Positions 14,817 to 56,014 are shown, counted from the stretch's first letter. The stretch: 56,014 bases of DNA from Alphaproteobacteria bacterium (GCA_017960855.1 JAGCYJ010000004.1:1-56014), one strand, 5' to 3'. The notes: generated by a model not told the origin, from the sequence alone. Numbers and translations are program-made.

Positions 14817-14838
14817 AGAAATCGCATTGGGGAATAAA

Positions 14839-35780: not shown

Positions 35781-36416
35781 TTATCTTGTTTTATGACGAC
35801 CTGGGAACTTGCGACAGAAATAAAATTGCCAATCGCACGGTGTCCCTTTGCGAATACCTTTGCAATGAATACAAGTTTCGCCCTTGTGTTCGCATTCTTC
35901 GTCGCATGGGATCAGTTGGAATCCAACGAATGCGCTTGGATTTTGGTGAATATTTTCGGCATTGCGTCCCAAGATTTGTGATTTAAGTACGTTTTGTTTT
36001 TCGCCTGTTTCAAATTCAAATATGTATTCTATTGGCAGGCCACGACCATTTTTGATTACTTCAATGCTTTTAATACGACGGGCGCGTTGTTTCAACATAA
36101 TTGCAACTTTTGGGTGATCTTCTTTGAAACGACGTGGAAATTCTGGATAAATAAACTGTTCTTGGCAAACAGTGTCCGAAACGAACGGTTTGCGTTGTCC
36201 TTGGGGACGCAGCGAGCACATGCCGTTTTCGTCTGGGCCGGCGCAGCGCGTGCGGCAAGAAACGATGATTTTGCCCGGTTCAATGGCGGTATTGCCTTTT
36301 TTCTGGGCTTGTGCAATAAAGCGACAAGAACCATCCATAAAAACGACAGTCCACCCAGCTTTTTCGGGTGTGACGGTGGAAACAGTTCTTTTTGTTGTTT
36401 CGTTAAAACGTGTCAT
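35781..36416 (-). CDS. Hypothetical cysteine-rich cytoplasmic protein (211 aa)
   Basis: Strong SD (ggaggttgatATG) at 36416 and no signal peptide. Cys clusters are SCRTRCAGPDENGMC and a C-terminal CDEECEHKGETCIHCKG...PCDWQFYFC. The longer ORF start at 36527 overlaps tRNA-Val and was rejected. Confidence 0.5.
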   Translation of the reverse strand: MTRFNETTKRTVSTVTPEKAGWTVVFMDGSCRFIAQAQKKGNTAIEPGKIIVSCRTRCAGPDENGMCSLRPQGQRKPFVSDTVCQEQFIYPEFPRRFKEDHPKVAIMLKQRARRIKSIEVIKNGRGLPIEYIFEFETGEKQNVLKSQILGRNAENIHQNPSAFVGFQLIPCDEECEHKGETCIHCKGIRKGTPCDWQFYFCRKFPGRHKTR

Positions 36417-36526
36417 ATCAACCTCCGTTTGACTTGTTTTTGTAAAATATAACACAAAAGACGCGTTTGTCAAGCAGCGGGTTAAAGAAATAAAAAAATA
36501 CACCTTACGGTGCATTTTATTATTCA

Positions 36527-36603
36527 TGGTGGATGTTAAGGGACTCGAACCCCTGACCCTCTGCGTGTAAAGCAGATGCTCTAGCCAACTGAGCTAAACA
36601 TCC
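36527..36603 (-). tRNA. tRNA-Val (TAC)
   Basis: The reverse complement ggatgtttagctcagttggctagagcatctgcttTACacgcagagggtcaggggttcgagtcccttaacatccacca has a 7 bp acceptor stem, a T-loop and an encoded CCA. It is followed by a hairpin plus T-run at 36491-36519. Confidence 0.9.
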
Positions 36604-38983: not shown

Positions 38984-39676
38984 TTAACGCACCGGCGAAA
39001 TACGGATTTCAACGCGACGATTGGTCAGCCGGCCAATGTCATCCTGGGCGGCGATGGGACGTGCCGCACCACGACCAACCACAAATAACCGCTGGGGAAT
39101 AATTCCGTGTTGGGTCAGACATACCGCAGTGCGTGATGCCATGTCGCCAGATAATGCCGCTGCTGCACGTGTGTCGCGCATTGCGTCGGTATAGCCGGCA
39201 ACTTCTATGAAGGTTGCGTCGTATTTTTTCAATATCTTTGAAATTGTTTTTAATGTATCCGCCCCATCTGCTGAAATATCGGCGATGTTTAATTCCATTA
39301 TTGCGTCGCGCACTAAAATAACAACGACATCTGTGCCGGCACGCTGGACAGAAATGCCGGGCTTGCGTAAAGCATCATACAGTGCGAATTCCAATTCGGA
39401 CATATAAGCCACCGCCAATGCGTTGTCATTTGTTGTTTTGTCGCCATATTCTGATTTTGCGTTTGGTTCAGCGGTTTGACTAATTGTTCGACCACCTGCA
39501 CCCAAAAGTACAGGTTTCTTTGCGACACGTGATGTTTCGGTCATATCACCAAAACTGGCACCACGCAGATAGTTTGGCCATGTGCTGCGTTCTGGACTGT
39601 GATAAGTTGCACACCCAATCAGTGTGGCACAAATGAATACTGAAAAAACGCAAATAAATTTTTTCAATTTATTCAA
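38984..39676 (-). CDS. OmpA/MotB-C-domain lipoprotein
   Basis: Lipobox LIGC and a C-terminal OmpA-like domain (FIEVAGYTDAMRDTRAAAALSGDMASRTAVCL...GRLTNRRVEIRI). Its start overlaps the end of the upstream pilin gene by 8 nt. Confidence 0.7.
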   Translation of the reverse strand: MNKLKKFICVFSVFICATLIGCATYHSPERSTWPNYLRGASFGDMTETSRVAKKPVLLGAGGRTISQTAEPNAKSEYGDKTTNDNALAVAYMSELEFALYDALRKPGISVQRAGTDVVVILVRDAIMELNIADISADGADTLKTISKILKKYDATFIEVAGYTDAMRDTRAAAALSGDMASRTAVCLTQHGIIPQRLFVVGRGAARPIAAQDDIGRLTNRRVEIRISPVR

Positions 39677-40127
39677 CTATGAATGAAACTTGGTTTGTAT
39701 TTGTTGAAAAGCAACCCGATGTATTATTGGGTTCTTGACCGTTGATTAAAACGGCCGTTGCCCATTCTTGCTTTTTAACCGCAAAATATTCGCATTCGCC
39801 TGATGACAACCCGTTCAAACTAATGATGAAAGATTTTTCATCAAAACTTGGTGATACAGACCAATCATCGCTGCCGATTGGTGCCTTGGCAGATTTTAAT
39901 GCGCCCGCCTTTATCAAATATTCAACCGAAATGCCAGCATATGAATTGCGTGGTCCAGCAAGCAGTTTTACATTTTTTGCCAGTTGTTCTAGTTCGGTGG
40001 ACACTAAACTGCGTGTTTGACTTGCGCGGATTTGACCGTACATTTTAACAGCCGCCACAGAAATAATTGTGCCGATTGCCAACACCCCGATGATTTCTAT
40101 CAAGGAACGACCAGATTCTTGTTTCAT
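39669..40127 (-). CDS. Type IV pilin / pseudopilin-like protein (152 aa precursor)
   Basis: Class III leader MKQESG|RSLIEIIGVLAIGTIISVAAV with Glu at +5, a hydrophobic alpha1 helix, and a C-terminal Cys pair (SGECEY...SGCFS). SD gggggg lies upstream of the ATG at 40127, 20 nt after the dnaX stop. Confidence 0.65.
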   Translation of the reverse strand: MKQESGRSLIEIIGVLAIGTIISVAAVKMYGQIRASQTRSLVSTELEQLAKNVKLLAGPRNSYAGISVEYLIKAGALKSAKAPIGSDDWSVSPSFDEKSFIISLNGLSSGECEYFAVKKQEWATAVLINGQEPNNTSGCFSTNTNQVSFIVE

Positions 40128-40146
40128 GATTCCCCCCGTGTTTTTA

Positions 40147-41676
40147 TTATTTTGTTGAACCGACGATTTCGGCACCTTCAAACAAACTCATTGCGTCCGC
40201 AATAAGTGGATCTGATTTTAATTCTTCGCGTTTCTGTTCAGACACAGTTTGGACATGTTCAGATTTTTCTTCGCGAACCAATGTCCATGTATGTCCAGTT
40301 TTATCGTTTAACCACATCAATAATTTGTGTTCAAAGTCGGTATCTGTACCGCGGTCAAAATATGTTATTTTGCCGTCTGAAAAATCAGAAACTTCTATAT
40401 TGTTGGTATAGTATGAATACAGCAAGATTTCCTTGGCTGACTGTAATTCGGTTGCCAACTGTGCCGCCGTTGAAACAATTATATTTTTAGGTGTGCTTGG
40501 CGCGGGCTTTGCAACTGGCGCGACTGGTGCCGTTGGCTGCTTCTTGATTATTTCTGCAACCGAAGGCATTTCGGCAATATGCATCATGCGCACAATCAGC
40601 ATATCAAAACACTGTTTTGGATTTCCGGTTGCCTGCATTTCAGGAACAGATGCAACCATAACTTGCCATAATCTTGAAAGCGTATTCAATGTTATATGTG
40701 AATCAATTTCGCGAATCTTGGTGCGCTGGTCCGCGGTATATGGTGCATTTACAACATCGCCCATGCGAACAGACGGGTGCATACGTGTTGCCCAATGTGT
40801 CCATTCCATCATATCGGTAAGCAGCATAGATAAATCGGCACCGTTGTTGTAAATACTATCAATCTTTTCCAATGCGGTTGCGGTATCGCCACTTAAGACG
40901 GTTTCCATAACGTCCATCACGACACCGCGGTCGGCGCGCTTTAACATATTTAACACAGATGCTTCATCAACATGGCCACCGGTTTGTGCAATCGCTTGGT
41001 CCAGCAGAGACAGACCATCACGCACGGAACCATCGGCTGCACGCGCCAGCAATTCGTTTGCGCCATCGGACAATTCAATTTTTTCTTGTTCTGCAATCCA
41101 TGCAAAGTGCTTCTTTAAAATATCAACAGGAACACGAACCAAATCAAAACGTTGGCAACGCGACAAAATGGTGACTGGCACCTTACGAATTTCGGTGGTT
41201 GCCAGAATAAATATGACATGTGCTGGTGGTTCTTCTAGTGTTTTAAGCAACGCATTAAATGCGCTTTGCGACAACATGTGAACTTCGTCGATAATATAAA
41301 CCTTGTAGCGACCATTCGTTGGACGATATTGAACCGCATCCAATATTTCACGCATATTATCAACACCCGTATGAGATGCAGCGTCAATTTCCAAAACATC
41401 AATGTGTTGCCCCGCTGCAATCGCACGACAGTTTTCACAAACCCCGCATGGTGTTGCGGTTGGTCGGTCTGATGATAGGCAGTTTAACGCCTTGGCCAAA
41501 ATACGTGCCGTACTGGTTTTACCGGTACCGCGAATGCCCGTGAAAATATAGGCATGTGCAATACGCCCCGTGTTTATTGCGGTGGTAAGTGTTTTTACCA
41601 AAACATCTTGTCCAATAAGGGATTGAAAATCTTGACTGCGGTATTTTCGGGCTAAAACTGTATAACTGGTATCCAT
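40147..41676 (-). CDS. dnaX: DNA polymerase III subunit tau/gamma
   Basis: LARKYRSQDFQSLIGQD...HAYIFTGIRGTGKTSTARILAKALNC...CGVCENC...IDEVHMLS...TLEEPP...SRCQRFDL. Confidence 0.9.
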   Translation of the reverse strand: MDTSYTVLARKYRSQDFQSLIGQDVLVKTLTTAINTGRIAHAYIFTGIRGTGKTSTARILAKALNCLSSDRPTATPCGVCENCRAIAAGQHIDVLEIDAASHTGVDNMREILDAVQYRPTNGRYKVYIIDEVHMLSQSAFNALLKTLEEPPAHVIFILATTEIRKVPVTILSRCQRFDLVRVPVDILKKHFAWIAEQEKIELSDGANELLARAADGSVRDGLSLLDQAIAQTGGHVDEASVLNMLKRADRGVVMDVMETVLSGDTATALEKIDSIYNNGADLSMLLTDMMEWTHWATRMHPSVRMGDVVNAPYTADQRTKIREIDSHITLNTLSRLWQVMVASVPEMQATGNPKQCFDMLIVRMMHIAEMPSVAEIIKKQPTAPVAPVAKPAPSTPKNIIVSTAAQLATELQSAKEILLYSYYTNNIEVSDFSDGKITYFDRGTDTDFEHKLLMWLNDKTGHTWTLVREEKSEHVQTVSEQKREELKSDPLIADAMSLFEGAEIVGSTK

Positions 41677-42140: not shown

Positions 42141-42169
42141 TTGCAATATTTTTTTTCAATTGCTATTCT
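42141..42169 (+). promoter_or_regulatory. Sigma70-like promoter of the giant-pilin operon (TTGCAA-17 nt-TATTCT)
   Basis: TTGCAA at 42141-42146 and TATTCT at 42164-42169, followed by SD taggaggg (42178-42185) and TTG at 42192. Confidence 0.4.
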
Positions 42170-42191
42170 GACGGGTGTAGGAGGGAATCTT

Positions 42192-43550
42192 TTGCGAACG
42201 GAACGCGGGAACTTTTTATTACAAGCGTTATTGGCGCTGACGTTGCTGTTCGCGTTCATTCCCTTTATTGCGACAAAACTTTTGGGGCGCGAAAATGATG
42301 CTATGATGTATTCTACAACGCGTCAAATTGATAATGCGACAACCGCGGCGCGTATATATGTTCGTGAAAATGCGAATAATTTACCGTATGAACGCACAAT
42401 ACTTTCGGGTAATTCTTTTTCCGATACGCTGGAAGCATATGGTTTGCCGTTGGGTTTTGTTCCAAAAACAGCACTGGGACAGGATATCTCGCTTGTTATC
42501 GATAAAGATACAGAATCTGTTTCGGCTTATTTGGAATTAAAGGGTGGAAAACTAAATAGGCTGAAACGGGCTGAATTGGTGCGTCGTATCGGTTTTTATG
42601 CAGCGGATGCTGGCGATGAAACGGTACATGTTGGAATTGTTTTAGACGATATGTATTCTGATGTTGTGCGTCGCAATGAAACAAATGTTGATGCGGGCGC
42701 ATTTTTGGTTGATTTGGATATGGGCGGTTTTGAATTGTCTGGTGCGGGGCGTATTTCAACGCGCCGTGGCGAATTTGATGGTGCGGAAATTGGGTTGCTT
42801 ACCATAAATGGTGTAGAAGCGGGACGCAAGGTACGAAACAATATTTCTGTTATGGTTGCGGATAAAACAATATTTCAATCACAGACAGGTGAAAGCGCGC
42901 TTACATTGACACGTGGTTCGTTGATTGTGGGTGGCATAAATGGAAAAACGATATCGGCTTATGGTGATACGGGGAACATAACAACGAACAATGCAGCGGT
43001 TTATAATTTTTCTATGACGGCTGGGCGAACTGGGTTCAGTGGACCGCCGAAATGGAATATTCATGGTGATGTTGTCACCAGTAAAATAAATTTTAATGTA
43101 GAAAGATTGGATGTTAGTTCGTTTATAAATGTCGCGCGCGGTCAAGATGCGTATATTGAATCTGACGAGATAGAATACAGCAGCAGCAGCGGTATTGACA
43201 CAAATGTAATTCATACATCAAACATAACGTTACGCGACCAGACATCTGATGCTTTGTCGCGTGGCGGTTCGGGCGCGGTGGTGTTGGATATTCGTCCGGC
43301 GGGAACATCTTTGTTGCCCGATGCGCTGGTTTCAACGATTGATAATGGAACATTTGAGATACTTGCAAAACCATCAGATAGTGGTGCAAATACGGTTGAT
43401 TGCAAAACGATAATTTCGTCATTACAGGGTGTTTATAATCAACATTCTTTGTCGCAATATCTGATATGCCAGTATGTTTATTGGCAACGGTTGGAAAAAA
43501 GAATAGATATTAAACAATGTTTATTGGCAGGAAGAAGTGGCTGTATTTAA
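42192..43550 (+). CDS. Giant pilin-like protein A (452 aa), prepilin-type N-terminus lacking Glu5
   Basis: A TTG start 6 nt after aggaggg gives MRTERG|NFLLQALLALTLLFAFIPFI (Gln at +5). The internal motif FLVDLDMGGFELSGAG is shared with the next two genes. The C-terminus is Cys-containing. Confidence 0.55.
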   Translation: MRTERGNFLLQALLALTLLFAFIPFIATKLLGRENDAMMYSTTRQIDNATTAARIYVRENANNLPYERTILSGNSFSDTLEAYGLPLGFVPKTALGQDISLVIDKDTESVSAYLELKGGKLNRLKRAELVRRIGFYAADAGDETVHVGIVLDDMYSDVVRRNETNVDAGAFLVDLDMGGFELSGAGRISTRRGEFDGAEIGLLTINGVEAGRKVRNNISVMVADKTIFQSQTGESALTLTRGSLIVGGINGKTISAYGDTGNITTNNAAVYNFSMTAGRTGFSGPPKWNIHGDVVTSKINFNVERLDVSSFINVARGQDAYIESDEIEYSSSSGIDTNVIHTSNITLRDQTSDALSRGGSGAVVLDIRPAGTSLLPDALVSTIDNGTFEILAKPSDSGANTVDCKTIISSLQGVYNQHSLSQYLICQYVYWQRLEKRIDIKQCLLAGRSGCI

Positions 43551-44760
43551 AACAAAAATTTTTGATGAAACAAATCGTGGTGCCAGTGTGCTTGAGGTCA
43601 TATTGTCTATGGCCATTGTCGCCATGGCTGCGCCACTGGTTTATTCACAGATATCTGAAACAAATCGCAATATTCGTGATATGGCAACTGCGCATAATAT
43701 AACAGAATTGCGGGGTGGCGTGTTAAACTTTATTCGTTTGAACCAAGACGAATGGCCAGATGTTGCACAAATTCGTATGACTGATGAAGAATTGGAAATA
43801 ATTTCCGAAGGTGCGCATGCGGGCTTTATAGATAAATACGGTACACACGGAACAACAATTACGGATGTGTATTTGGCATTTAACATAGATTCACCGATGT
43901 TGCGTGTTGCAAATATTGCACATCATATTGGTGAAGATGCTGCTATTGTTGGTGCGGATGGCATCGCATATGGTCGTACATGGGCGGTTAGTGCGCCGGA
44001 ATTTAATCAGGGTGATTTGATATACCGCATATCACGCAGTACGTTTGGTGAAGATAACACTAAATATTTACATCGTGGCACATCAGGCGATGATGATTTA
44101 AATGTTATGCATCGCGATTTGAATATGGGCGGAAATGACATGTTAAGTGTTGGTGGTGTTTCGGCGGCCGCAGTACGAATCCAAGATGCAACGGCGACAT
44201 TTGTTAAAAGTGAAGATTTGGTTGCGCAATCAATATATTTTTCCAATGGCGCAAATTTGACGGGTGGTGATGTATCTATTGATTCTTTGCGTGTGACTGG
44301 TGATATTATCGGGTTTAGAAATATATATGCCGATAACTTAAATGGGGCAAATTATACGACATCTGGTCGAATTATTACCGATCGTGCAACCGTGACTAAT
44401 TCTGTAAATGTCGGACGAGAGTTTGTGTTGAAATCTGATTCTGCCCGTACAATAAGTGGTTTCACCGGTATTAAATCAGGTTCTGTTTATACGTCATATT
44501 TGACAACAGACGAAATTATATTTTACGAAGATTTTGGACTTACCGTATCTGGCGAATTGATGGTATCAACTAATAACAAACCGTTAAAATTGGGTAATTG
44601 GTCGTTCCCATCAACAACGCCACCTACTTTTTCTGTACTGAATCTGACACGCGCAACAACACCAAAGATGCCAAGTAAATCAGAATTTGGTGTTTTGATG
44701 ACAAGCGATTGGCAAACATATGTTCCGCCACAAGCAGTTGGGGGGCCAAATGAGTTTTAA
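43537..44760 (+). CDS. Giant pilin-like protein B (407 aa), prepilin-type N-terminus with Glu5
   Basis: A GTG start gives MAVFKTKIFDETNRG|ASVLEVILSMAIVAMAAPLV. The internal motif KYLHRGTSGDDDLNVMHRDLNMGGNDMLSVGG is PilV/shufflon-N-like. It overlaps gene A by 14 nt. Confidence 0.6.
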   Translation: MAVFKTKIFDETNRGASVLEVILSMAIVAMAAPLVYSQISETNRNIRDMATAHNITELRGGVLNFIRLNQDEWPDVAQIRMTDEELEIISEGAHAGFIDKYGTHGTTITDVYLAFNIDSPMLRVANIAHHIGEDAAIVGADGIAYGRTWAVSAPEFNQGDLIYRISRSTFGEDNTKYLHRGTSGDDDLNVMHRDLNMGGNDMLSVGGVSAAAVRIQDATATFVKSEDLVAQSIYFSNGANLTGGDVSIDSLRVTGDIIGFRNIYADNLNGANYTTSGRIITDRATVTNSVNVGREFVLKSDSARTISGFTGIKSGSVYTSYLTTDEIIFYEDFGLTVSGELMVSTNNKPLKLGNWSFPSTTPPTFSVLNLTRATTPKMPSKSEFGVLMTSDWQTYVPPQAVGGPNEF

Positions 44761-44782
44761 TTGTCGTATCTTTTCAAATCGT

Positions 44783-46066
44783 ATGTCGCAGCATGGTGGT
44801 ATGCTGGTTGAATTGTTGATGAGTGTCGCGATTGTTGCGGTTGTTTTGCCGTTCTTGTTCCGGTACCAAGAAGATTCAATAATGCGTGTTGAAAATATTG
44901 CTGTGGCGCGTCAAATGCAAGATGTGCAAAGTGCACTGGAACGTTATATTATAACGAACCGCGATAAATTGCTGACGGTTGCGGGTAAATCTATAAAACG
45001 CGTTGATATTGACGAATTGTTGCCGTATGGGATTCCGGAAAGTATAGCAGAAGATCATTCAGATAAATACCAGTTGCGTATATTGAAATCGTCTGATGCC
45101 ACGGGGCAGGCAACGCTTCAAGGTGTTGTTATTATGAACGATGATTCAATATCACCAATGCGTACGCGTGAAATAGTTGCGGTTGGTGGCAGTGATATGG
45201 GATTTGTCGAAGGAACACATGCATACGGAACATTTGGTGCGTGGCACGCGGATACAATTGATTTAGGTATAGAAGCAACCAATGGCATTGTTGGAACGAC
45301 GGAGGTAAATCGTGATAATGCGTTATACCTGTGGCGTGTTCCATCAGAAGATTCGTCAGATGCAACAATGTTGAGTGCGTTAAGTTTGGGCGGGCATGAC
45401 ATAGTAAATGTTTCAAAATTGAGTACTGTGGCCGCTGGATTTGATGAAACTTTGCAATCTATCAGTGTTGCTGCGGACAAGGTTGTTTTTACCAGTCGTA
45501 CTACTATTGACAGTGCGTTTGAAACCAAAAACGCGACCTGTGTTGGTTCGTTGTCTGCTGATGCTAAAACAATGGAAGTTGCCGGTGCATTAACATTGTC
45601 TGATTTGGGAAAGTTTTCCAGTTTTAATACCGCGAATTTGTGGGTGACCAACTTGGAATTATCTGGTGTTTCCATCGCGGACACAAGCAAAGTGACCGTT
45701 TTAGATATCAATCAAGCATTGGATATGACGGGTGGGCGTATAAGTGCATTATTTACGACTGTGAGTTTCGCGGGGTCTATTACACCGCGCTTGGTTGTTC
45801 ATAACAGAATAGAAGATTCTGTTCAATCTGGTTTTTATTGGGATTTTAAAAGCAATGCCGCAAACTTTGCTGATCTTTCATTGGTGGAATTAAATCGTAT
45901 GGCTACATTGGCGACCAAGAAAGAGGGCAACTCTTCTACTGTCACGACACAGGTTTTTGGTGCCGTTGTCGCAAACCCAAATGCAACCGCGGCTGATTTT
46001 ATGAACGCAATAAACGAAATCCAAACAAAAGTGCGTGCGAAATATCGCCTGTTGAATTTGGAATAA
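44783..46066 (+). CDS. Giant pilin-like protein C (about 427 aa), prepilin-type N-terminus with Glu5
   Basis: MSQHG|GMLVELLMSVAIVAVVLPFLF. The internal motif is ALYLWRVPSEDSSDATMLSALSLGGHDIVNVSKL. An alternative start at 44750 overlaps the stop of gene B. Confidence 0.6.
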   Translation: MSQHGGMLVELLMSVAIVAVVLPFLFRYQEDSIMRVENIAVARQMQDVQSALERYIITNRDKLLTVAGKSIKRVDIDELLPYGIPESIAEDHSDKYQLRILKSSDATGQATLQGVVIMNDDSISPMRTREIVAVGGSDMGFVEGTHAYGTFGAWHADTIDLGIEATNGIVGTTEVNRDNALYLWRVPSEDSSDATMLSALSLGGHDIVNVSKLSTVAAGFDETLQSISVAADKVVFTSRTTIDSAFETKNATCVGSLSADAKTMEVAGALTLSDLGKFSSFNTANLWVTNLELSGVSIADTSKVTVLDINQALDMTGGRISALFTTVSFAGSITPRLVVHNRIEDSVQSGFYWDFKSNAANFADLSLVELNRMATLATKKEGNSSTVTTQVFGAVVANPNATAADFMNAINEIQTKVRAKYRLLNLE

Positions 46067-46086: not shown

Positions 46087-46596
46087 ATGAAAATAAAATG
46101 CGATTTTTGTAAGACAGAATATTCGGTGGATAAATCACCGACTACACCGGTAAAGTGTGCGGTTTGTGGTCATGTTTGGACCGCAACAACCCCGACACAT
46201 CGTGGTGCGTGGATGATGTTTATTGCGTCCCTGTGTGCGTTATTGTCGGCGGCGGTTTTTGCAACTGCCGTAATTGTGCGTTCAAAGATAGAAAATGCGA
46301 ACAAACAACCGATTGTTGCGCAACTTACAGAAATTAAAACAGTTACTGATGATAACGGTGTTCCACGGTTTTCTGTTCGTGGCGCGATTATAAACCAATC
46401 AACAGAAATATATGGCGTGCCTGATTTGGTGGTTGTTTCACGTGATGCGTCGGGGCGTGAAATTGCGCGTCAAAAGTTTATGCCATCGGCAACATTAGTG
46501 GAAGCAGGTGCATCTGTTGAATTTTATCATGTTTTAAGTACTGCGACCGATGGGGTAAAAAAGATAACTGTTGAATTACAAACGGGGGATAAGTAA
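46087..46596 (+). CDS. ZitP-like protein: MJ0042-type zinc ribbon + TM + DUF3426-like domain
   Basis: MKIKCDFCKTEYSVDKSPTTPVKCAVCGHVWTA (CxxC...CxxC), TM MMFIASLCALLSAAVFATAVIV, and a C-terminal beta-rich domain. Confidence 0.6.
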   Translation: MKIKCDFCKTEYSVDKSPTTPVKCAVCGHVWTATTPTHRGAWMMFIASLCALLSAAVFATAVIVRSKIENANKQPIVAQLTEIKTVTDDNGVPRFSVRGAIINQSTEIYGVPDLVVVSRDASGREIARQKFMPSATLVEAGASVEFYHVLSTATDGVKKITVELQTGDK

Positions 46597-47075
46597 TGAA
46601 AAAGTTTTTAGCCACTTTGGGTATTGTGTTATGTACATTTGGTGCATCTTTTGCCGATACAACGCCACCACCACCGGCACTGGTTCGTAGGGTTAGTATT
46701 TTTTCAACCAGTACTGATTGGCAGGCGATAACAGGTTTGCTTTTGAACGAATACCGCGGAAGTTTTAAGCCAGATTCTAAACTTATTGGAACCAAAGGGT
46801 TGGAACTGTATTATTTGGACGGTTTCCCATGCTATGGTTTGGGTGAAGGTGTTCGTGTTTGGTTGGGACCAAATAACAAGCATGATGGGGAATTGCGTAT
46901 CGCTTGTGTCTATGCGCCGGAAACAATAAACTTTTCATGGCGAAATGCCACCCGTGATGCTGATGATGGTACGGGTACTGGTTTGATTACATGCCCAGTT
47001 GATGCCGATGGTCGCGATTTGACGATTGATTTATCAAAGTGCGACAAGGGCAAAGATTGGGACGAATATAGATAG
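46596..47075 (+). CDS. Small secreted hypothetical protein (159 aa)
   Basis: Signal peptide MKKFLATLGIVLCTFGASFA, a PPPP stretch and several Cys. Its start overlaps the preceding stop (TAATG). Confidence 0.5.
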   Translation: MKKFLATLGIVLCTFGASFADTTPPPPALVRRVSIFSTSTDWQAITGLLLNEYRGSFKPDSKLIGTKGLELYYLDGFPCYGLGEGVRVWLGPNNKHDGELRIACVYAPETINFSWRNATRDADDGTGTGLITCPVDADGRDLTIDLSKCDKGKDWDEYR

Positions 47076-48066: not shown

Positions 48067-48094
48067 TTGTCTAAATCTGAAAATATGTTATAAT
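48067..48094 (+). promoter_or_regulatory. Extended -10 promoter for the Cys-rich protein P1 gene
   Basis: TTGTCT at 48067-48072, a 16 nt spacer, and TGtTATAAT at 48086-48094. Confidence 0.4.
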
Positions 48095-48120
48095 AAAATA
48101 ACAATAATGGAGTGAGACAA

Positions 48121-51100
48121 ATGCATTTCTTCAATAAAACGATTGGTTTAATGGCTGTTTTGTGCGCTATGCCGGCGGCGTTTGCTGCGACTGCGCGTCC
48201 AAGTATAGTTTCTGCAACTGTTGGTTCGCGTATGCCGACGATGGTTGTAAAGACATCCACCGCCAGCAGTACCAGTACAACGACAACATCTTCTGCGTTG
48301 CTTGCAAACGCAGAATGTATTGATGCGTACACCGAATGTATCAAGGACGCAGATTCCTGTGGTGAAAACTTTGAAGAATGCACAAATAAGGTCTTGTTCC
48401 ACGGAAAAATGCCAAACTGCTTGGGTACATTGGCACAATGTTCCACGTCTGGTGTAAACAGTTTGTTTGGAACATCAAATATTTCCGCTTTGTCTAATAT
48501 CGCGACTAAAAACACTTATGGCGAAGTGACCGATTATACATACCCGACCGATGGCAGTGTTTTGGGTCAAATGATAACTGCAGCGGCGATTTCTAATCGT
48601 TATGACACTTCAACCTGTGTTCGCCGTTATACATCGTGTTTGCGTAAAGATACTGTTTGTGGCGATGATTTTGAACTTTGCACAACGAACAAAGAATTCC
48701 GTAAGCAACGCGTATTTTGTGATTCAACATTGGCGCGTTGCCAATCTGATGGTGTGATTGAATTATTGGGTTCGTCAAATCGTACCGCAATGCCAACTGC
48801 GTCATCTCGTATTGGTGAAATGATTACCGAAGGTGCGGCATTGGCGGCAATTGCGTCCGTTTCCACATGCTATAAGGTTGTTGAACAGTGCTTCCTTGGT
48901 GCGTGTGCGGCAAACCCGTACAAGTGCTATGAAAACAGCAACCAATCTGTTGTTGAAATTGTTGAAGCAATCAACAATGGTACAGAAATCACAACCGAAA
49001 TGGTTGATGGTGTAATCAACAAATCGTCCATTTCTTCTTACCTGAAGAACAGTTGTTTGGACACAATTGGTTCAAACAAGTATTGTTATGCGACATTCTT
49101 GGGCAATGGCCAGATGCCAACAAATGCCCAGTTGCGTGATGAAGATAACCAAGAAGAAATATTTGATTTGGCATATTCGTCCCGTATGAATGACGCGATG
49201 AAGGCAAAGATTGCCGACTTGGTTGATAAATTTGATACCAAGGCAAAGCAGAAATGTACCGAAACAATTAAATCTTGCGCAATGCGTGTTTGTGGTGGTG
49301 GTGTTGGCTCGGCATGCTATGCGGCGGTGTTCGGTAATTCCGATAAAAGTATCAACGGTGCGGCTACATACGAAGAAATCAAGACGGGTTGTGCGCCAAT
49401 CGTCAATACCGATACATATTGCAAATATGCGGCGGCGAATCCAAATTCAACGGGTACATATTCTTATACATATATAAATCGCGAAGCATTTGATGTTTTG
49501 TTCCCAGAATATGACAATGGTGCTGAAATTGATGCAATTGGCGTTGTTGCATCTTTGAATTCTGCGTTGGCAACAAATTACAGCGATGCCGCAATTGCCC
49601 AGTTGAAAAAACAATGTCAATCAGTGGCCAGCAGCTGTGTTAAATCTATGTGCGGATCTGACTATGTCAATTGCTATCGCACACGTACCGATGTTGCGTC
49701 CAGTTTGACAAACACCGGCAACAGCACATTTGATGCATCCATGAACAAGGTTGGTGGTGTGCTTGATTACACAATCGTTTTGGGCTTGTGCTTGGACACC
49801 GTTAAAAATGCATCTGTTTGTGAAGAACACTTGGCGATTGAAGCGAACAAGATAAAAATCGCAGAGAAAGGTACATCTTCTTGGGGCGATGCGACATCTG
49901 TCCGTGAAGGTTGGATTGATGCAGGTGCAACTACAAAAATCACTGGTGAAACAGAAACAGTTGCGCTGACCGATGCGTATGGCAACAAGTTGTGCAGAAC
50001 CCAAGATGGCGACGAAGGTATCTGCTATACAGTAAGCGAAAGCGGCAAAGTGTATGATATTGAAGAAACAATAGATTACACCACATATGTCCAGAACCAA
50101 GCGGCTTCTACTTTGTTCAAAGATTTAATCTATGACATTGAAAAAGAAGCCCAGGCAAAATATAACTCTAAACTGACACATGAACAACAAATGTGCTATT
50201 CTGCAAATTCGGGTGGTATCGTTGGTAATAAAGATATGGGCAGCACATTTATGTGGGCTAAATTGAACGGTAACCGTGTTCCAAAAGATTACACTGTCAA
50301 TGGTTTGAAACAAACCGCGTTCAAGGCCAGCAACGATTTGTACGGTTCGTTCTGTCGTGTGCGTGTGACATTGCAATCTGATGATAAAAAGATTCAGGAT
50401 GCGATAAAGGGTAAATCTTGGAACACAGCATACTTTGCAGTTGGTGATTCGTTCACATGTGGTTCTTGGATTCCAGACGATGAATTGGAAGATTTGGCAA
50501 ATGCTGCGGCCGGCAAGGCAACCGAAGGTATGGCCGCGGATCAGAAACGTCTGCGCACATGGACAACGATTTTGGGCGCATTGGGCGGCAGTTTGGGCGG
50601 ATATGAATTGGGCGAAAGCATCCGCAAAGGCAAAGCATTAACTGGTTTGACTAAATGGAATACCACAAAAATGCAGTCCAAGAAAGATTTACAGGAATCA
50701 TGTGTAAGAATTGTAAATGCTTTGACTAATGATGATGCAAAACAACTGTATGATCATTCTGGCGACCTTTATAATACAGCCAGTGAGTTGCTGGGCAATA
50801 CAACGGATATGACTACATTAAATACTGCAAGAGAAGCGTTGTGGAATGCGTATATAAAGTGCTTGAATGACAAGACCAATAACCCCTGTGTTGCAGAAAG
50901 TGAGCTAGCAAAAGCAAAAAGCGAAGTTAGGTTAGTAGCCGGCAGAATCAAAAACGCGTGCAATAGTGCGGATATCAAGGATTCCGACGATGGTAAATCA
51001 CCTTGGTGGACAGTGGCCAGCACAATCGCATTGGGTACGGGTGGCGCATTGTTGGTGAACAAGGCAACACGCGATATTCAAAATTCTGAATTGTCCGCAG

Positions 51101-51216
51101 CCGAAAAAGCGGCATACGAAGAATGGATGAACAGTGTTGGTCGTCATGTTTCCTGCTATATCGGCGCAGATGAAGCCGGTAACTATGGCGATGTAATTAC
51201 AACCAGTTTGGAATAA
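48121..51216 (+). CDS. Giant secreted cysteine-rich protein P1 (1031 aa) with C-terminal hydrophobic segments
   Basis: SD ggag 8 nt before the ATG at 48121. Signal peptide MHFFNKTIGLMAVLCAMPAAFA, an S/T-rich linker, and about 40 Cys by my count, arranged in recurring C-x6-C-x4/6-C-x4-7-C modules. There are two hydrophobic segments near the C-terminus (TWTTILGALGGSLGG, WWTVASTIALGTGGALLV). Confidence 0.6.
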   Translation: MHFFNKTIGLMAVLCAMPAAFAATARPSIVSATVGSRMPTMVVKTSTASSTSTTTTSSALLANAECIDAYTECIKDADSCGENFEECTNKVLFHGKMPNCLGTLAQCSTSGVNSLFGTSNISALSNIATKNTYGEVTDYTYPTDGSVLGQMITAAAISNRYDTSTCVRRYTSCLRKDTVCGDDFELCTTNKEFRKQRVFCDSTLARCQSDGVIELLGSSNRTAMPTASSRIGEMITEGAALAAIASVSTCYKVVEQCFLGACAANPYKCYENSNQSVVEIVEAINNGTEITTEMVDGVINKSSISSYLKNSCLDTIGSNKYCYATFLGNGQMPTNAQLRDEDNQEEIFDLAYSSRMNDAMKAKIADLVDKFDTKAKQKCTETIKSCAMRVCGGGVGSACYAAVFGNSDKSINGAATYEEIKTGCAPIVNTDTYCKYAAANPNSTGTYSYTYINREAFDVLFPEYDNGAEIDAIGVVASLNSALATNYSDAAIAQLKKQCQSVASSCVKSMCGSDYVNCYRTRTDVASSLTNTGNSTFDASMNKVGGVLDYTIVLGLCLDTVKNASVCEEHLAIEANKIKIAEKGTSSWGDATSVREGWIDAGATTKITGETETVALTDAYGNKLCRTQDGDEGICYTVSESGKVYDIEETIDYTTYVQNQAASTLFKDLIYDIEKEAQAKYNSKLTHEQQMCYSANSGGIVGNKDMGSTFMWAKLNGNRVPKDYTVNGLKQTAFKASNDLYGSFCRVRVTLQSDDKKIQDAIKGKSWNTAYFAVGDSFTCGSWIPDDELEDLANAAAGKATEGMAADQKRLRTWTTILGALGGSLGGYELGESIRKGKALTGLTKWNTTKMQSKKDLQESCVRIVNALTNDDAKQLYDHSGDLYNTASELLGNTTDMTTLNTAREALWNAYIKCLNDKTNNPCVAESELAKAKSEVRLVAGRIKNACNSADIKDSDDGKSPWWTVASTIALGTGGALLVNKATRDIQNSELSAAEKAAYEEWMNSVGRHVSCYIGADEAGNYGDVITTSLE

Positions 51217-51235
51217 TCCTTGCTAATTAAAAAGA

Positions 51236-51257
51236 CCGCCCACACGGGCGGTTTTTT
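51236..51257 (+). terminator. Rho-independent terminator after P1 (CCGCCC/GGGCGG stem)
   Basis: ccgccc-acac-gggcgg followed by tttttt. Confidence 0.7.
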
Positions 51258-51270
51258 GTTGTCTTTCCCC

Positions 51271-51299
51271 TTGCTAGAACATGTTTTTTATGTTAAAAT
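51271..51299 (+). promoter_or_regulatory. Extended -10 promoter for the P2 gene (TTGCTA-17 nt-TGtTAAAAT)
   Basis: TTGCTA at 51271-51276 and TGtTAAAAT at 51291-51299. SD aagagag lies upstream of the ATG at 51317. Confidence 0.4.
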
Positions 51300-51316
51300 T
51301 AAAGGTAAGAGAGAAT

Positions 51317-53689
51317 ATGAAATATCTTGCCAGATTTTTGTTGGCGGTGCTGTGTGTCGTGCCTTTTGGCGCGCAGGGTTCTAATGTTCCGACAACGCGT
51401 GGAAATAATTTAACCGCGTATAATGGCGCATCGGGTTCAACAAATAATAATAACTGGAACGCGTTGATGAATGTGCGTTCGGGTTCTGATGCGGCTGATA
51501 TGCCGGTTGCTGATTTTGGTAATTGTAATGCGATTGTTTTGCGCTGTGCACAACCGAAGTGCGCGAATGGCGGTTGTACAGATATGAATATTGCCGCGAC
51601 AATCGTAAATGGCTGTGTGCAATCTAACGAAGCGTGTAAAGAATATGGCGACGATTTAATTGGGTATATTGCGGCGCAATTGGTGGCTAATTCCACCGCC
51701 AAGGCAAATGCTGCACAAAATGCCGCTGCCCAGGCCGCTGCGGAACAAAACGCCCAGCAAATGCAACAAATGCAGGCGCAAATGCAACAACAGATGCAAC
51801 AAATGGCGGCACAAAATGCCGAAACCGTTGCACAATTACAAAGTGCGCTGGATGAACAAAAACAAATGACTGCCCAGGCAATCGCAGATGCCACTGCATC
51901 GCGTTCCGCGCCGGTTGCAACAACGACCACAAGCAGCAGTTCAAATAACGATTTAACAACGCAACAACAAGCGGCGGCGGGCGCATTGACCACCGCACAA
52001 CAAATAGCAGCGCAAAACGGTGTTTCGCCGGATATTTTGGCACGTGAACAGATTACCGGTCAAATCATGTCATCGCTTGAAAATGCGGAAACACAGTTAA
52101 AAACATTAAAAACCACAATGGCAGACACGTTTGAATACGCGGGTTGTGATACAAAGGGTTCTAATTGTACCGGTCCAAAACGGGTAAAGGTTTTTAAACA
52201 AAAGGCAATGTCGTTCTTTGACCCGTATGAAAATGTTTTGGACGAATTGTATGACGCTTTAATTACTGCCCAGGCGGTTGGTGTTGACATTACTGATATC
52301 TACATGATGCTGAATGGTTCATGCAATGTGTGGGGAAAATATCTGTGTAATTTAGGGGCGACCATCAAAGAAAGAGTTTGTGATGAACCTATTGTAACAG
52401 TAGTTGGCACAGGTATTTCTGTTACATGTAAGGATAATTTGTACCACTATGAGACAAGGGTAAAAAATACGGATACTTACGATGATACTTCGTGTCCAAA
52501 TAATACCAGGTCTGTGCAATCTGGTCGCGCCCGTGGCGGACATGAATGTATCCAGGGTCAAGTGATACCCCCAGAAGATGATATTGCATGCACATTGCAA
52601 AAAATGATTGTTGACAGTGATGATGACCCAGTGCAACGTGATTGGTTGTGGAATGAAACAGATGAAGAGGGATCAAATATTCGTGTCGGTTGTGCATCGT
52701 CTGCACTGGAAGCATCTAAATTCTTCCGTAATCGTAAAAAGGGTACAAATCTGGACATAGAAATTTTGGAACGCATTGTGGAACAAGATGCGCCAAGTTC
52801 CTTTGGGGCTATTTGGGGAAATAGCAACAATACCACATCACCAAAGCCAGATGGTGTAAAGTACTGTGCTGTAAGCGGTGATACAATCGGTGAATTGGAA
52901 AAAATAGTTTCATTAAAAACACTGCCGAAACCCGTGTGTGTAAAAGATGGTAGTTTAGAACAAATATTCAATGACGATAATGGCAAGGTGACCACGTCGA
53001 ATGGTATGGATTGCGAAAATGACGATAATAATCGTATAAATCCGCTAATCGCACTGTGTTCAACACATGTCTATAATATTGGTGAAGCGCAAAATCAATC
53101 TGATGAATCGCGTAAACAACAGATGCGGCAAGTTATTGCTTTAAAGACAACATTTATGACGCAACAGATGTATAAGCAATACGAATACATGGAAACGATG
53201 ATTCGTCGGTTTAAAACCCAATTGGAAAAAGCAGTTTTGACAACTAAACTTCAGGCCGCCAGTGGTGGCAACACCAGTGGTTCGTCATCTTCTTCAACAG
53301 GCGGTTCTGTGTCCGGTGGTTCGGTACAGCGTAGTCGTGATGTCTATGCCGTCGTTGATGGTGCTCAAGATTGTAATTTAATTGAAACAGGAACCGCAGA
53401 TGCTTTGCAGTGTGTTCAAGGAAATATAACCGCCGCACTTAGAGCATTGGACGAAGGTAAAAACGCCGAAGCAAGAAGACAACTGCAAAAAGATTTAGAA
53501 GTAGCAAAAAGATATGGTAGAAGTTATAACGATGATTTAAAAAATAATAAAGTTACGAGTTGCAATACAATAGCATCCAGTTCAAATCCATCAACATTAC
53601 GCACCTGTGCATACGATTTGCGTTCCGCGGTGGCGCTTGCGATAACCAAGTATAATAATGAGTCAAGTCGCACGCGCGCCACACCATAA
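51317..53689 (+). CDS. Large secreted cysteine-rich protein P2 (790 aa) with a Q/M/A-rich low-complexity region
   Basis: Signal peptide MKYLARFLLAVLCVVPFGAQG, the module NCNAIVLRCAQPKCANGGC matching P1 modules, the AQNAAAQAAAEQNAQQMQQMQAQMQQQMQQMAAQ stretch, and about 25 Cys by my count. Confidence 0.6.
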   Translation: MKYLARFLLAVLCVVPFGAQGSNVPTTRGNNLTAYNGASGSTNNNNWNALMNVRSGSDAADMPVADFGNCNAIVLRCAQPKCANGGCTDMNIAATIVNGCVQSNEACKEYGDDLIGYIAAQLVANSTAKANAAQNAAAQAAAEQNAQQMQQMQAQMQQQMQQMAAQNAETVAQLQSALDEQKQMTAQAIADATASRSAPVATTTTSSSSNNDLTTQQQAAAGALTTAQQIAAQNGVSPDILAREQITGQIMSSLENAETQLKTLKTTMADTFEYAGCDTKGSNCTGPKRVKVFKQKAMSFFDPYENVLDELYDALITAQAVGVDITDIYMMLNGSCNVWGKYLCNLGATIKERVCDEPIVTVVGTGISVTCKDNLYHYETRVKNTDTYDDTSCPNNTRSVQSGRARGGHECIQGQVIPPEDDIACTLQKMIVDSDDDPVQRDWLWNETDEEGSNIRVGCASSALEASKFFRNRKKGTNLDIEILERIVEQDAPSSFGAIWGNSNNTTSPKPDGVKYCAVSGDTIGELEKIVSLKTLPKPVCVKDGSLEQIFNDDNGKVTTSNGMDCENDDNNRINPLIALCSTHVYNIGEAQNQSDESRKQQMRQVIALKTTFMTQQMYKQYEYMETMIRRFKTQLEKAVLTTKLQAASGGNTSGSSSSSTGGSVSGGSVQRSRDVYAVVDGAQDCNLIETGTADALQCVQGNITAALRALDEGKNAEARRQLQKDLEVAKRYGRSYNDDLKNNKVTSCNTIASSSNPSTLRTCAYDLRSAVALAITKYNNESSRTRATP

Positions 53690-53697
53690 TTATTTAT

Positions 53698-53719
53698 CCG
53701 CCCGTTTGGGCGGTTTTTT
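53698..53719 (+). terminator. Rho-independent terminator after P2 (same CCGCCC/GGGCGG stem as the P1 terminator)
   Basis: ccgccc-gttt-gggcgg followed by tttttt. Confidence 0.7.
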
Positions 53720-53737
53720 GTTGAAGCATGCAGAGTG

Positions 53738-53837
53738 TTGTCATCCCGGGCTTGCCCCGGGATCCAGGTAATAGAAAAGCACGCGCCAATAGCGCGACAT
53801 AAATACCTGGACCACGGCTCTGGGGCCGGGGTGACAA
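53738..53837. repeat. Roughly 100 bp imperfect palindromic element (MITE / RPE-like) between two terminators
   Basis: The left arm ttgtcatcccgggcttgccccgggatccaggta pairs with the right arm tacctggaccacggctctggggccggggtgacaa. The terminal ttgtca(t/c)cccgg and tccaggta blocks are complementary, and there is an internal cccggg-cttgc-cccggg hairpin. Confidence 0.4.
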
Positions 53838-53878
53838 AATAGTATGGGGGCGGGGCAAGGAATAGATGTTACTTTATT

Positions 53879-53908
53879 AAAAAAACGCCCCGTGGGGCGT
53901 TGTTTTTT
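53879..53908. terminator. Terminator after the P3 gene (AACGCCC hairpin, A- and T-runs on both sides)
   Basis: aaaaaaacgccc-cgtg-gggcgttgtttttt. Confidence 0.6.
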
Positions 53909-55595: not shown

Positions 55596-55929
55596 GCGGG
55601 CTTTCAAGTTGGGAACCAATTAAATCATGCTCTCAACCCCTGAAATTCGGCGGTTTACGGAACAAACGCTAAGAACGGGGTACCGGTTAAACTGCAAACA
55701 TTGTGAATAAAAGCAGCTCATCAAAATTCAAGAAGGGATGTGCAGACAGTTGAATTTGGATTATCCAAACTTTGACTAAGTCAAATGTGCATATCCTAGA
55801 CAGGTAGTAGGTTTACATATTAAACCTCGTTAAAAACTTGTCTTGCGAATAATCATATATGTAAAGACGAACTGAATTAAAGTCAGCTTTGTTTAAATAT
55901 GCACAGGACTTAAACCACAAGTTTTTTAA

Positions 55930-56014
55930 AACTTGAGAGTTTGATCCTGGCTCAGAACGAACGCTGGCGGCAGGTCTTAGGCATGCAAGTCGAACGGACG
56001 AAGCGAAAGCTTGC
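55930..56014 (+). rRNA. rrs: 16S rRNA gene, 5' end (partial; runs off the right edge)
   Basis: aacttgAGAGTTTGATCCTGGCTCAGAACGAACGCTGGCGGCAGG...CATGCAAGTCGAACGG contains the universal 27F site and an alphaproteobacteria-type AACGAACGCTGGCGGCAGG. Confidence 0.95.

Follow-up and report, generated by a model that had tools for sequence, protein, structure and literature searches.

Adjacent cysteine-rich proteins with recombining hypervariable modules in Candidatus Enterousia, an uncultured gut lineage of Alphaproteobacteria

Two adjacent genes in a 56,014 nt stretch of DNA from an alphaproteobacterium (GCA_017960855.1, JAGCYJ010000004.1:1-56014; hereafter the window) encode large cysteine (Cys)-rich proteins, here named P1 and P2. 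Both genes are real, conserved and lineage-restricted, and they belong to no characterized family. The Cys frameworks of P1 and P2 are under very strong constraint and bear the statistical signature of complete intramolecular pairing, and sequence comparison of otherwise near-identical strains establishes that each protein carries a small module that is replaced by recombination. These hypervariable inserts, which are absent from the first-pass annotation of the window, are the most informative feature of the two proteins. In the reading that we favour, P1 and P2 are disulfide-stapled proteins of the exposed envelope or surface that display variable modules. We give this reading as a whole a probability of about 0.5; of its parts, we are more confident of the structure and less so of surface exposure.

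The window comes from Candidatus Enterousia (order Rs-D84, Alphaproteobacteria), an uncultured gut lineage. Enterousia and the order Rs-D84 are rod-shaped bacteria with genomes of <1 Mb that have no tricarboxylic acid cycle and no respiratory chain, an incomplete glycolysis and few recognisable transporters, and their lifestyle is probably partner-dependent (PMC12306168). They are present in termites both with and without flagellates (PMC11257099). They are widespread in human, livestock, bird and termite guts. Across the order P1 belongs to the core genes. It has no known relative or fold and combines a dense conserved Cys scaffold with a recombining hypervariable module; it is a concrete candidate for the interface of these bacteria with a partner, host immunity or phages.

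Results

Two Cys-rich proteins with putative export signals

P1 is encoded at positions 48121-51216 (+; 1031 aa, 41 Cys, 4.0%) and P2 at 51317-53689 (+; 790 aa, 25 Cys, 3.2%). The open reading frames (ORFs) are those given by the first-pass annotation, which had put the Cys at about 40 and about 25. The ATG starts, at 48121 and 51317, are backed by GGAG/AGAGAG-type ribosome-binding sites and by the N-terminal consensus of the homologues. Both proteins look exported, as had been claimed: by eye, each begins with a Lys-rich n-region and a hydrophobic core followed by a putative cleavage site (AFA/A in P1, AQG/S in P2), and these features are conserved in the homologues. Over all 45 proteins of the window the Cys content is 1.2%, or about 0.8% without the P1 and P2 genes, and the other envelope proteins of the window are not Cys-rich (LptD, TolC-like and porin-like proteins, 0-3 Cys each).

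All the modules that had been listed, five in P1 and one in P2, were found, letter for letter, at residues 66, 166, 250, 379 and 499 of P1 and at residue 70 of P2. In 20,000 shuffles, 0.022 modules were expected for P1, with no shuffle giving five, and 0.006 for P2. Consecutive Cys separated by a gap of exactly 7 occur 13 times in P1, compared with 1.2 expected from 20,000 shuffles.

Conservation and parity of Cys residues

Alignments were made of 34 close P1 homologues, of 33 P2 members and of 82 P1 homologues that include distant relatives. Across the 82, whose identity to P1 goes down to 21%, 31 columns are invariant and 27 of these are Cys. The first-pass annotation had staked its proposal on the Cys spacing being conserved in orthologues, and in P1 it is.

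The number of Cys in the mature protein is even in 79 of the 82 aligned P1 homologues, in 111 of 119 close P1 matches and in 113 of 120 P2 matches, and it changes in steps of two (38, 40, 42, 44 and 46 in P1; 18 to 38 in P2). Parity also has a regional pattern in P1. Residues 30-800 contain an odd number of Cys in 80/82 homologues and the C-terminal tail contains a single one, the invariant C1012, in 79/82, while the region between two glycine (Gly)-rich segments (aa 836-962) contains an even number (2, 4, 6 or 8) in 81/82. The simplest explanation is that the tail is disulfide-linked to an alpha/beta domain in the N-terminal part and that a helical bundle between the Gly-rich segments pairs its own Cys. 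Parity by region would place the whole of P1 in an oxidising compartment, which argues against an inner-membrane hairpin with a cytoplasmic loop, and the even counts point to intramolecular pairing rather than an intermolecular lattice. As positions i and i+7 lie on one face of a helix, the regular Cys gaps suggest antiparallel hairpins stapled by disulfides in a 'twin Cx6C' arrangement.

Hypervariable modules in P1 and P2

The region between the Gly-rich segments, modelled as a four-helix bundle (aa 849-952; 50665-50976, +), is hypervariable. Among the 34 close homologues, mean pairwise identity is 0.66-0.79 in the scaffold domains and 0.64 in the tail, compared with 0.12 in residues 849-952, and the length of the bundle ranges from 67 to 264 aa across the 82 aligned homologues. 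In 357 protein pairs with a 738-residue scaffold that is >=98% identical, bundle identity has a median of 0.56 and a minimum of 0.27, and P1 pairs with identical 738 aa scaffolds are about 40% different in the bundle.

Comparison of the window with the nearest strain, in which rluD shares 99.3% nucleotide identity, gave synonymous (dS) and nonsynonymous (dN) divergences of 0.105 and 0.010 for the scaffold and 0.515 and 0.204 for the bundle. In two further strains with approximately 1% background divergence, P1 contains 0-2 differences per 500 nt over 2.5 kb; in the next 500 nt, which include the bundle, there are 103. In this patch dS = 0.57 and dN = 0.26, against dS = 0.007 and dN = 0 upstream, so that dS is raised approximately 80-fold. 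The patch contains all substitution classes and one indel, and four Cys are kept. As dS is raised as much as dN and the boundaries are sharp, the bundle appears to have undergone recombinational replacement with old, divergent alleles; the same observations led us to reject hypermutation in place. No second copy of positions 50665-50976 that could serve as a donor or template was found in the 56-kb window. With no such copy and no adenine-specific substitution spectrum, a diversity-generating retroelement or a silent cassette in the window was also rejected.

P2 includes a Cys-bounded hypervariable patch (aa ~355-405; 52379-52531, +), with an identity of 0.19 in the alignment designated A2. 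It has also been replaced between the two near-identical strains that differ in the P1 bundle. Both proteins thus contain what is expected of a recombining variable antigen, namely a sharply bounded hypervariable segment in which dS as well as dN is raised.

Anatomy and predicted fold of P1

An AlphaFold2 model of P1 built from the 82-sequence alignment had a predicted local distance difference test (pLDDT) score of 77.4 and a predicted template modelling (pTM) score of 0.55, with 775 residues at >=70 and 376 at >=90; an earlier model from the 34 close homologues was poor (pLDDT 57.8). The better model establishes the predicted architecture of P1 as helical domains in a chain, together with an alpha/beta domain. 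The N-terminal 550 residues are helical, the alpha/beta domain is joined by strands from the tail, and the four-helix bundle lies between low-confidence Gly-rich linkers.

The putative signal peptide (aa 1-23) is followed by a conserved motif, A-T-A-R-P-S-[VI]-x(9)-R-M-P-T (aa 24-41; 48121-48243, +, together with the signal peptide). R26, R37 and P39 are invariant in the 34 homologues, and the motif is also visible in termite-gut relatives; in the model it is disordered. We considered a general sorting signal, and rejected it as the motif is essentially P1-specific, with loose echoes in one other Cys-rich family. Lipoprotein status was likewise rejected for P1, P2 and a third secreted protein, P3 (see below): L or I precedes the Cys of the signal peptide, and only a third of homologues share C15 of P1.

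Beyond a Ser/Thr-rich linker (aa 42-62) are two tandem six-Cys helical domains, A1 and A2 (aa 63-120 and 163-245; 48307-48855, +), with Cys gaps of 7, 7, 7, 13 and 7. In the model, the first two Cys are seven residues apart on helix 1, the next two are in a loop that contains the CG..FE.C core, and the last two are on or just after helix 2. The tandem duplication of about 100 aa that had been proposed here was recovered as residues 63-120 and 163-220 (48307-48480 and 48607-48780), which are identical at 22 of 58 positions and have a profile-profile E value of 1e-17. Distant relatives of P1 have one A domain, and A1 is missing from them entirely. Three B modules follow (aa 246-372, 373-492 and 493-611; 48856-49953, +), each with the pattern C-x6-C-x4-C-x6/7-C and then C-x9-C. 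None of their 18 Cys varies, and the three are alike in how helices and Cys are arranged, though the sequence similarity among them is not significant (hhalign E = 0.009-0.14).

The mixed alpha/beta domain, C (aa 612-800; 49954-50520, +), contains C625, C635, C692, C745 and C780 and has block-mean pLDDT values of approximately 67-93. Gly-rich segment 1 (aa 801-848; 50521-50664, +) is glycine-zipper-like and has low pLDDT. After the hypervariable bundle, Gly-rich segment 2 (aa 953-985) leads into the tail (aa 986-1031), which includes the invariant C1012 (segment and tail together 50977-51213, +). In the model the tail forms beta strands with high pLDDT that are docked on the alpha/beta domain.

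It had been suggested that two hydrophobic segments at the end of P1 could anchor it. Two hydrophobic stretches of approximately 17 residues, with Trp and charged flanks, are indeed present. However, they are Gly-rich and weakly hydrophobic, with no 19-residue hydropathy window that reaches the signal peptide or an internal segment at residue 544, and parity puts the region between them in an oxidising compartment. Thus, the Gly-rich segments are probably not inner-membrane anchors. Matches to the glycine zipper family PF05433 were found in 5 of the 34 P1 alignment members at E <= 1, and in none for the P1 of the window itself; the best score, 17.1 bits, is below the gathering threshold of 24.2 bits. 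These weak hits fall on both Gly-rich segments, and on segment 1 in two of the five members.

P2 is a fusion that shares a Cys framework with P1

P2a (aa 1-548) and P2b (aa 558-776) are fused in P2. In many relatives these are separate genes that overlap by a few nucleotides (e.g. positions 13357-16076 of locus L001 and 13046-15681 of locus L037). The separate P2b gene has its own signal peptide, and each of the separate products has an even number of Cys. In the window, the in-frame fusion no longer has the second gene's signal peptide or the Cys-rich C-terminal extension of the first. An N-terminal six-Cys module (aa 70-107; 51524-51637, +), with Cys gaps of 7, 5, 5, 13 and 7, is followed by a Gln/Ala-rich low-complexity region, probably a coiled coil (aa ~120-235; 51674-52021, +), which accounts for a spurious TFIIA match on P2. 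Opposite the Gln/Ala-rich part, an antisense ORF of 239 aa with 24 Cys (51274-51993, minus strand) is a by-product of CAG/GCA-rich sequence. The same artefact recurs opposite P2 in many related loci, where it can make 'Cys-rich' ORFs seem more numerous than they are.

The first-pass annotation proposed that P1 and P2 share a recurring module. A six-Cys framework, C-x6-C-x4-6-C-x4-6-C-x12-C-x6-C, is common to the two, with P2 matching the A domains of P1 down to the Thr after the fourth Cys. It is present twice in every P1 orthologue, or once in the distant termite-gut members that have no A1, and once in the P2 orthologues of 83 loci, and in no other real ORF of the 2,330 that were scanned. 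Random placement of the P2 Cys reproduced it once in 300,000 trials (~3e-6), for a pattern whose tolerance was widened after P2 had been seen. However, similarity between P1 and P2 is not significant (BLASTP E > 3; hhalign E = 0.06-0.4, including an A domain against the P2 module), so that neither sequences nor profiles demonstrate homology. We therefore regard the shared framework, as a pattern of Cys positions, as credible and common descent as unproven.

Distribution of P1

In a large protein collection P1 has >881 homologues, all of them unnamed hypothetical proteins from metagenome-assembled genomes (MAGs) of gut Alphaproteobacteria. When a single genome was scanned for each species, relatives turned up in at least 242 species. 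Their records bear the titles Candidatus Enterousia, uncultured Rickettsiales or Alphaproteobacteria, and the sources include humans, ruminants, birds and rodents. One of the genomes that carries P1 is circular and 958,618 bp long. An exhaustive profile search of 1.84 billion representatives returned 262 P1 clusters at 50% identity. Of the ten most divergent full-length clusters, five carry an organism name; these are MAGs with the title 'Rickettsiales bacterium' or 'Alphaproteobacteria bacterium', and, going by their locus-tag series, we take them to be from termite guts. The median identity of P1 is 59%, compared with 74-77% for housekeeping neighbours; P1 is thus faster-evolving, yet a stable core gene. 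Public records with P1 homologues that are labelled Bacteroides fragilis and Muribaculaceae (CAVGNU010000002.1 and protein P0092) have the gene order of Enterousia, and hence look mis-binned or mislabelled.

Expression signals

Each gene was said to have its own extended -10 promoter. Consensus matches with the TG extension do precede both, at 48067-48094 for P1 (+; TTGTCT, 16 nt spacer, TG-TATAAT) and at 51271-51299 for P2 (+; TTGCTA, 17 nt spacer, TG-TAAAAT). However, promoter-like matches are as a class no commoner in the window than in shuffled sequence, so the two sites are consistent with the claim and do not prove it. A terminator stem shared by the two genes had been noted as well. The intrinsic terminators of P1 (51230-51257, +) and P2 (53698-53713, +) each have a CCGCCC...GGGCGG stem and a T run, and CCGCCC-N4-GGGCGG occurs exactly twice in 56 kb, at these two sites.

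Gene neighbourhood

An upstream block consisting of dnaX, three pilin-like genes, a Zn-ribbon gene, sp159, rluD and P1 is kept in approximately 74 of 83 related loci. Downstream of P1 the content is fluid, with P2 in 30/83 loci, P3 in 42/83 and extra genes often between them. The sp159 product (46596-47075, +) is a small secreted protein of 159 aa with 5 Cys. Prepilin-type (class III) N-termini were found in four ORFs, at 39669-40181 (minus strand) and at 42141-43550, 43537-44760 and 44720-46066 (+), which read G/RSLIE..., G/NFLLQ..., G/ASVLE... and G/GMLVE.... One of the products, of 170 aa and with a Cys pair at its C-terminus, has the size of a pilin, and three are unusually large (407-469 aa), two of the latter being paralogues. 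None belongs to a Pfam family; a weak match to the XpsI N-terminal region and a weak match to PilS were returned. As a block upstream of P1 these ORFs are kept in approximately 70 of 83 related loci. No secretin, ATPase or platform gene is present in the window.

P3 (53917-55299, minus strand) is a third secreted Cys-containing protein, of 460 aa with 12 Cys and no known domain. Its N-terminal half is rich in Pro, Tyr and Gln, CC and CxC motifs are located close to its C-terminus, and the gene is found on either strand near P1. P2 and P3 converge on a 227-nt spacer (53714-53900) that includes further G+C-rich palindromes, e.g. CCCGGGCTTGCCCCGGG and CGCGCCAATAGCGCG, besides the two terminators; it has no Rfam match.

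In some species a third secreted Cys-rich family, with products of 709-848 aa that contain 30-39 Cys and many Cx6C pairs, is encoded beside P1 (L011 11404-13680; L041 12567-15113, minus strand; L053 1945-4074). The P1 and P2 profiles do not detect it, and its N-terminal region includes a loose echo of the 'ARPSV...SRMPT' motif of P1. Other species have a gene for a BspA-like protein with leucine-rich repeats (LRR_5) between P1 and P2 (L086 13152-14909 and L087 13139-14893, both minus strand), and the 5' part of this gene is a further divergence hot spot between near-identical strains.

Searches for relatives and comparison with known systems

The earlier statement that P1 and P2 contain no recognisable domain was upheld by profile searches, by searches of Protein Data Bank (PDB) sequences and, for P1, by a structure search. 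Pfam and NCBIfam searches with P1, P2, P3 and the neighbouring proteins returned nothing significant for P1, P2 or P3, and PHROGs returned nothing significant for these three, sp159 and three pilin-like ORFs. When all 34 P1 and 33 P2 alignment members were compared with Pfam at E <= 1, only the sub-threshold glycine zipper (P1) and the TFIIA artefact (P2) appeared. PDB sequence searches with the P1 and P2 profiles, P3 and two pilin-like ORFs gave only low-complexity or chance matches, and Foldseek searches of PDB and BFVD with the P1 model gave nothing at E < 0.001, the top hits being generic four-helix bundles and vinculin-like bundle chains. No account of these proteins was found in the literature. 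As a kind, exported proteins that are stabilised by disulfides and carry variable modules are already known; the P1/P2 family itself is previously undescribed.

HcpB and HcpC of Helicobacter are secreted, all-helical proteins of Sel1-like repeats, in which each repeat is stapled by a disulfide from spaced Cys pairs. P1 and P2 resemble them in probably being secreted and helical, in coming from a gut-associated bacterium and in their regularly spaced Cys pairs. However, P1 and P2 have no Sel1, tetratricopeptide (TPR) or other Pfam repeat, their Cys frameworks differ (7,7,7,13,7 and 7,5,7...10), and P1 is three to four times larger and includes an alpha/beta domain and a hypervariable insert. 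The pairing of two Cys per helix face across antiparallel helices, which is probable from the predicted helices of P1, recalls the twin Cx9C of CHCH proteins and the twin Cx3C of the small Tim proteins, both helical hairpins of the mitochondrial intermembrane space, but the P1 spacing is Cx6C, P1 is bacterial and exported, and there is no CHCH match in Pfam or Foldseek searches.

The combination of a conserved frame, a sharply bounded hypervariable segment and recombinational replacement is shared with Msp2/P44 of Anaplasma and with the porins and Opa proteins of Neisseria. These are beta-barrel outer-membrane proteins, often with silent donor cassettes, whereas the variable part of P1 is a predicted helical bundle that would contain disulfides and be surface-exposed. 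The P1 segments are GxxxG-rich and moderately hydrophobic like PF05433 proteins (the Rickettsia 17-kDa antigen, SlyB/Pcp), but P1 is not a lipoprotein and its segments are approximately 130 residues apart rather than in one hairpin. TraN, an outer-membrane protein that stabilises mating pairs in F-type conjugation systems, is also a large exported protein with many conserved Cys, and the window contains a VirD4-type gene; however, there is no TraN Pfam match, and P1 is a chromosomal core gene located far from the VirD4 gene.

Discussion

In the reading that we favour, P1 and P2 would be exported via Sec and would fold outside the cytoplasm as long, mostly alpha-helical scaffolds held by approximately 20 (P1) and 12 (P2) intramolecular disulfides, many of them probably formed by heptad-spaced Cys on neighbouring helices. 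The tail of P1 would fold back and be disulfide-linked to the alpha/beta domain, and the four-helix bundle would thereby be looped out between two flexible or membrane-active Gly-rich segments. Alleles of the bundle, and of the Cys-bounded loop of P2, would be exchanged between strains by homologous recombination and their diversity kept by selection, so that a partner cell, the host immune system or phages would meet a variable module, for contact or as an antigen, on a conserved, protease-resistant stalk. From the evidence above we infer Sec export, the existence and pairing of the disulfides, an external selective agent to which the variable modules are exposed, and a function in adhesion or partner recognition. 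We favour an exposed role because a resistant scaffold with a recombining hypervariable module resembles the contact and antigen proteins of host-associated microbes, and because such a role fits an organism thought to live off a partner. Other surface-type genes, for the LRR_5 protein and the third Cys-rich secreted family, are present in the neighbourhood in relatives.

Several points weigh against this reading. The homologues are related to one another, so the parity counts are not independent trials, and the pairing proposed for P1 is drawn from the positions of Cys on predicted helices rather than from S-S geometry. No outer-membrane route was recognised in P1 or P2, which have no beta-barrel, lipobox or known sorting signal, and Gly-rich segment 2 of P1 (TVASTIALGTGGALLV, with WW and NK on its flanks) may yet cross a membrane as a short helix. 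No match to DsbA or DsbB was found in any frame of the window and 87 related loci, which total 1.4 Mb, sample only a small part of any one genome and were searched with Escherichia coli queries. Nor is a DsbA/DsbB- or VKOR-type thiol oxidase among the annotations of the window.

Were P1 an inner-membrane protein, it would be anchored by a Gly-rich helical hairpin, with its Cys-rich 780 aa as the periplasmic scaffold of an envelope machine and the bundle in the cytoplasm. The two stretches of about 17 residues, with their Trp and charged flanks, would suit such an anchor, as would the lack of an outer-membrane targeting feature, and a single-copy core gene in a strongly conserved block (~74/83 loci) with a moderate median identity of 59% is what a structural envelope protein might be. 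Parity has no reason to exist in a cytoplasmic domain, and the region between the segments has an even number of Cys in 81 of 82 homologues; it is also hypervariable, which is unusual for such a domain. As neither segment is among the most hydrophobic 19-residue windows, and the glycine zipper matches are sub-threshold only, we consider this arrangement unlikely. It is more doubtful still that P1 and P2 are released toxins or effectors, exported for example by a type II-like system of the pilin-like genes; the variable module would then decide which target is hit, and the zippers would enter its membrane. Type II substrates as a rule fold and acquire their disulfides in the periplasm, glycine zippers are known from toxins that insert into membranes, four prepilin-type ORFs are just upstream in a conserved block, and a conserved body with a variable module recalls polymorphic toxins. 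However, the window has no secretin, ATPase or platform gene, and in a published genome survey type IV pili were reported only for another lineage (PMC12306168). In addition, rluD separates the pilin-like genes from P1, and in reduced genomes synteny says little about whether genes are functionally linked. Unlike an accessory toxin cassette, P1 is a core gene that is present in single copy at a constant site, and its variable module is internal rather than C-terminal, with no co-varying immunity-like gene after it.

The remaining alternatives concern the Cys themselves. Regularly spaced Cys clusters can be metal sites, and binding of Zn or Fe-S in place of disulfide formation would suit an anoxic habitat and a lineage that has no respiratory chain by which a DsbB-type enzyme could be reoxidised. 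This is very unlikely, as the signal peptides look Sec-type and have no twin-arginine motif, Cys counts change by two rather than by threes or fours, and Cys seven apart on a modelled helix face would point to a partner helix rather than to a common centre. The pilin-like neighbour with the usual C-terminal Cys pair of type IV pilins also suggests that periplasmic disulfides are made. The first-pass annotation had drawn a speculative analogy with the Cys-rich outer envelope proteins of obligate intracellular bacteria that have resistant infectious stages, as in chlamydiae. OmcB and OmcA are likewise Cys-rich exported proteins of a reduced-genome bacterium, and an outer envelope lattice cross-linked by intermolecular disulfides, giving rigidity to a resistant stage, could be expected of a probably partner-dependent bacterium in which several Cys-rich secreted families are clustered. 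The analogy was not supported. In a hmmscan of P1, P2 and 65 homologues against all of Pfam-A there was no match at E <= 1, including to Chlam_OMP6 and Chlam_OMP3. The even Cys counts, with Cys gained and lost in pairs, indicate consumption in intramolecular bonds, and the window contains genes of a conventional envelope with lipopolysaccharide and OmpA/Pal-type proteins (lpxD, skp, lptD, lptF/G, BamB-like and OmpA/Pal-type). MreB, RodA and MrdA are present in the lineage (PMC12306168). We see hardly any likelihood of a lattice.

A bolder version of the favoured reading, in which P1 and P2 are exposed disulfide-stapled proteins, is tentative and on balance doubtful. In it, P1, with P2 and the surface-type neighbours, would be the contact organ of an obligately partner-dependent gut alphaproteobacterium, a new all-helical stalk with about 20 disulfides. 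Its bundle would be carried through or onto the outer membrane by the glycine-zipper segments and would set the attachment partner or evade IgA or phages, and the stalk would be made anoxically, without a respiratory chain, via unconventional thiol oxidation. How some 20 putative disulfides per molecule could be formed in an anoxic gut by bacteria without a respiratory chain is a biochemical question in its own right. Should P1 and P2 turn out to be merely periplasmic, they would still represent a new family of disulfide-stapled helical folds.

Other contents of the window

The remainder of the window includes housekeeping genes (engA, infC, parAB, recF-like, dnaX, nusA and infB), two tRNA genes and, at its edge, the 5' end of a 16S rRNA gene (55929-56014, +). 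A VirD4/TraG-type coupling protein of type IV secretion systems (758 aa; 22721-24997, +) is encoded alone amid the housekeeping genes, which suggests a scattered, Rickettsiales-style type IV secretion system in the lineage. An ORF of 248 aa adjoining tRNA-Val (35781-36527, minus strand) has no signal peptide and no Pfam family, contains 12 Cys (4.8%), and ends in a C-terminal CDEECEH...CIHCKG...C cluster; it may represent a zinc-binding protein or a mis-called ORF. Genes for a TolC-like outer-membrane factor, an HlyD-type adaptor, an ABC ATPase and a MacB-type permease (12253-16814, +) make up a tripartite efflux or type I-like export operon.

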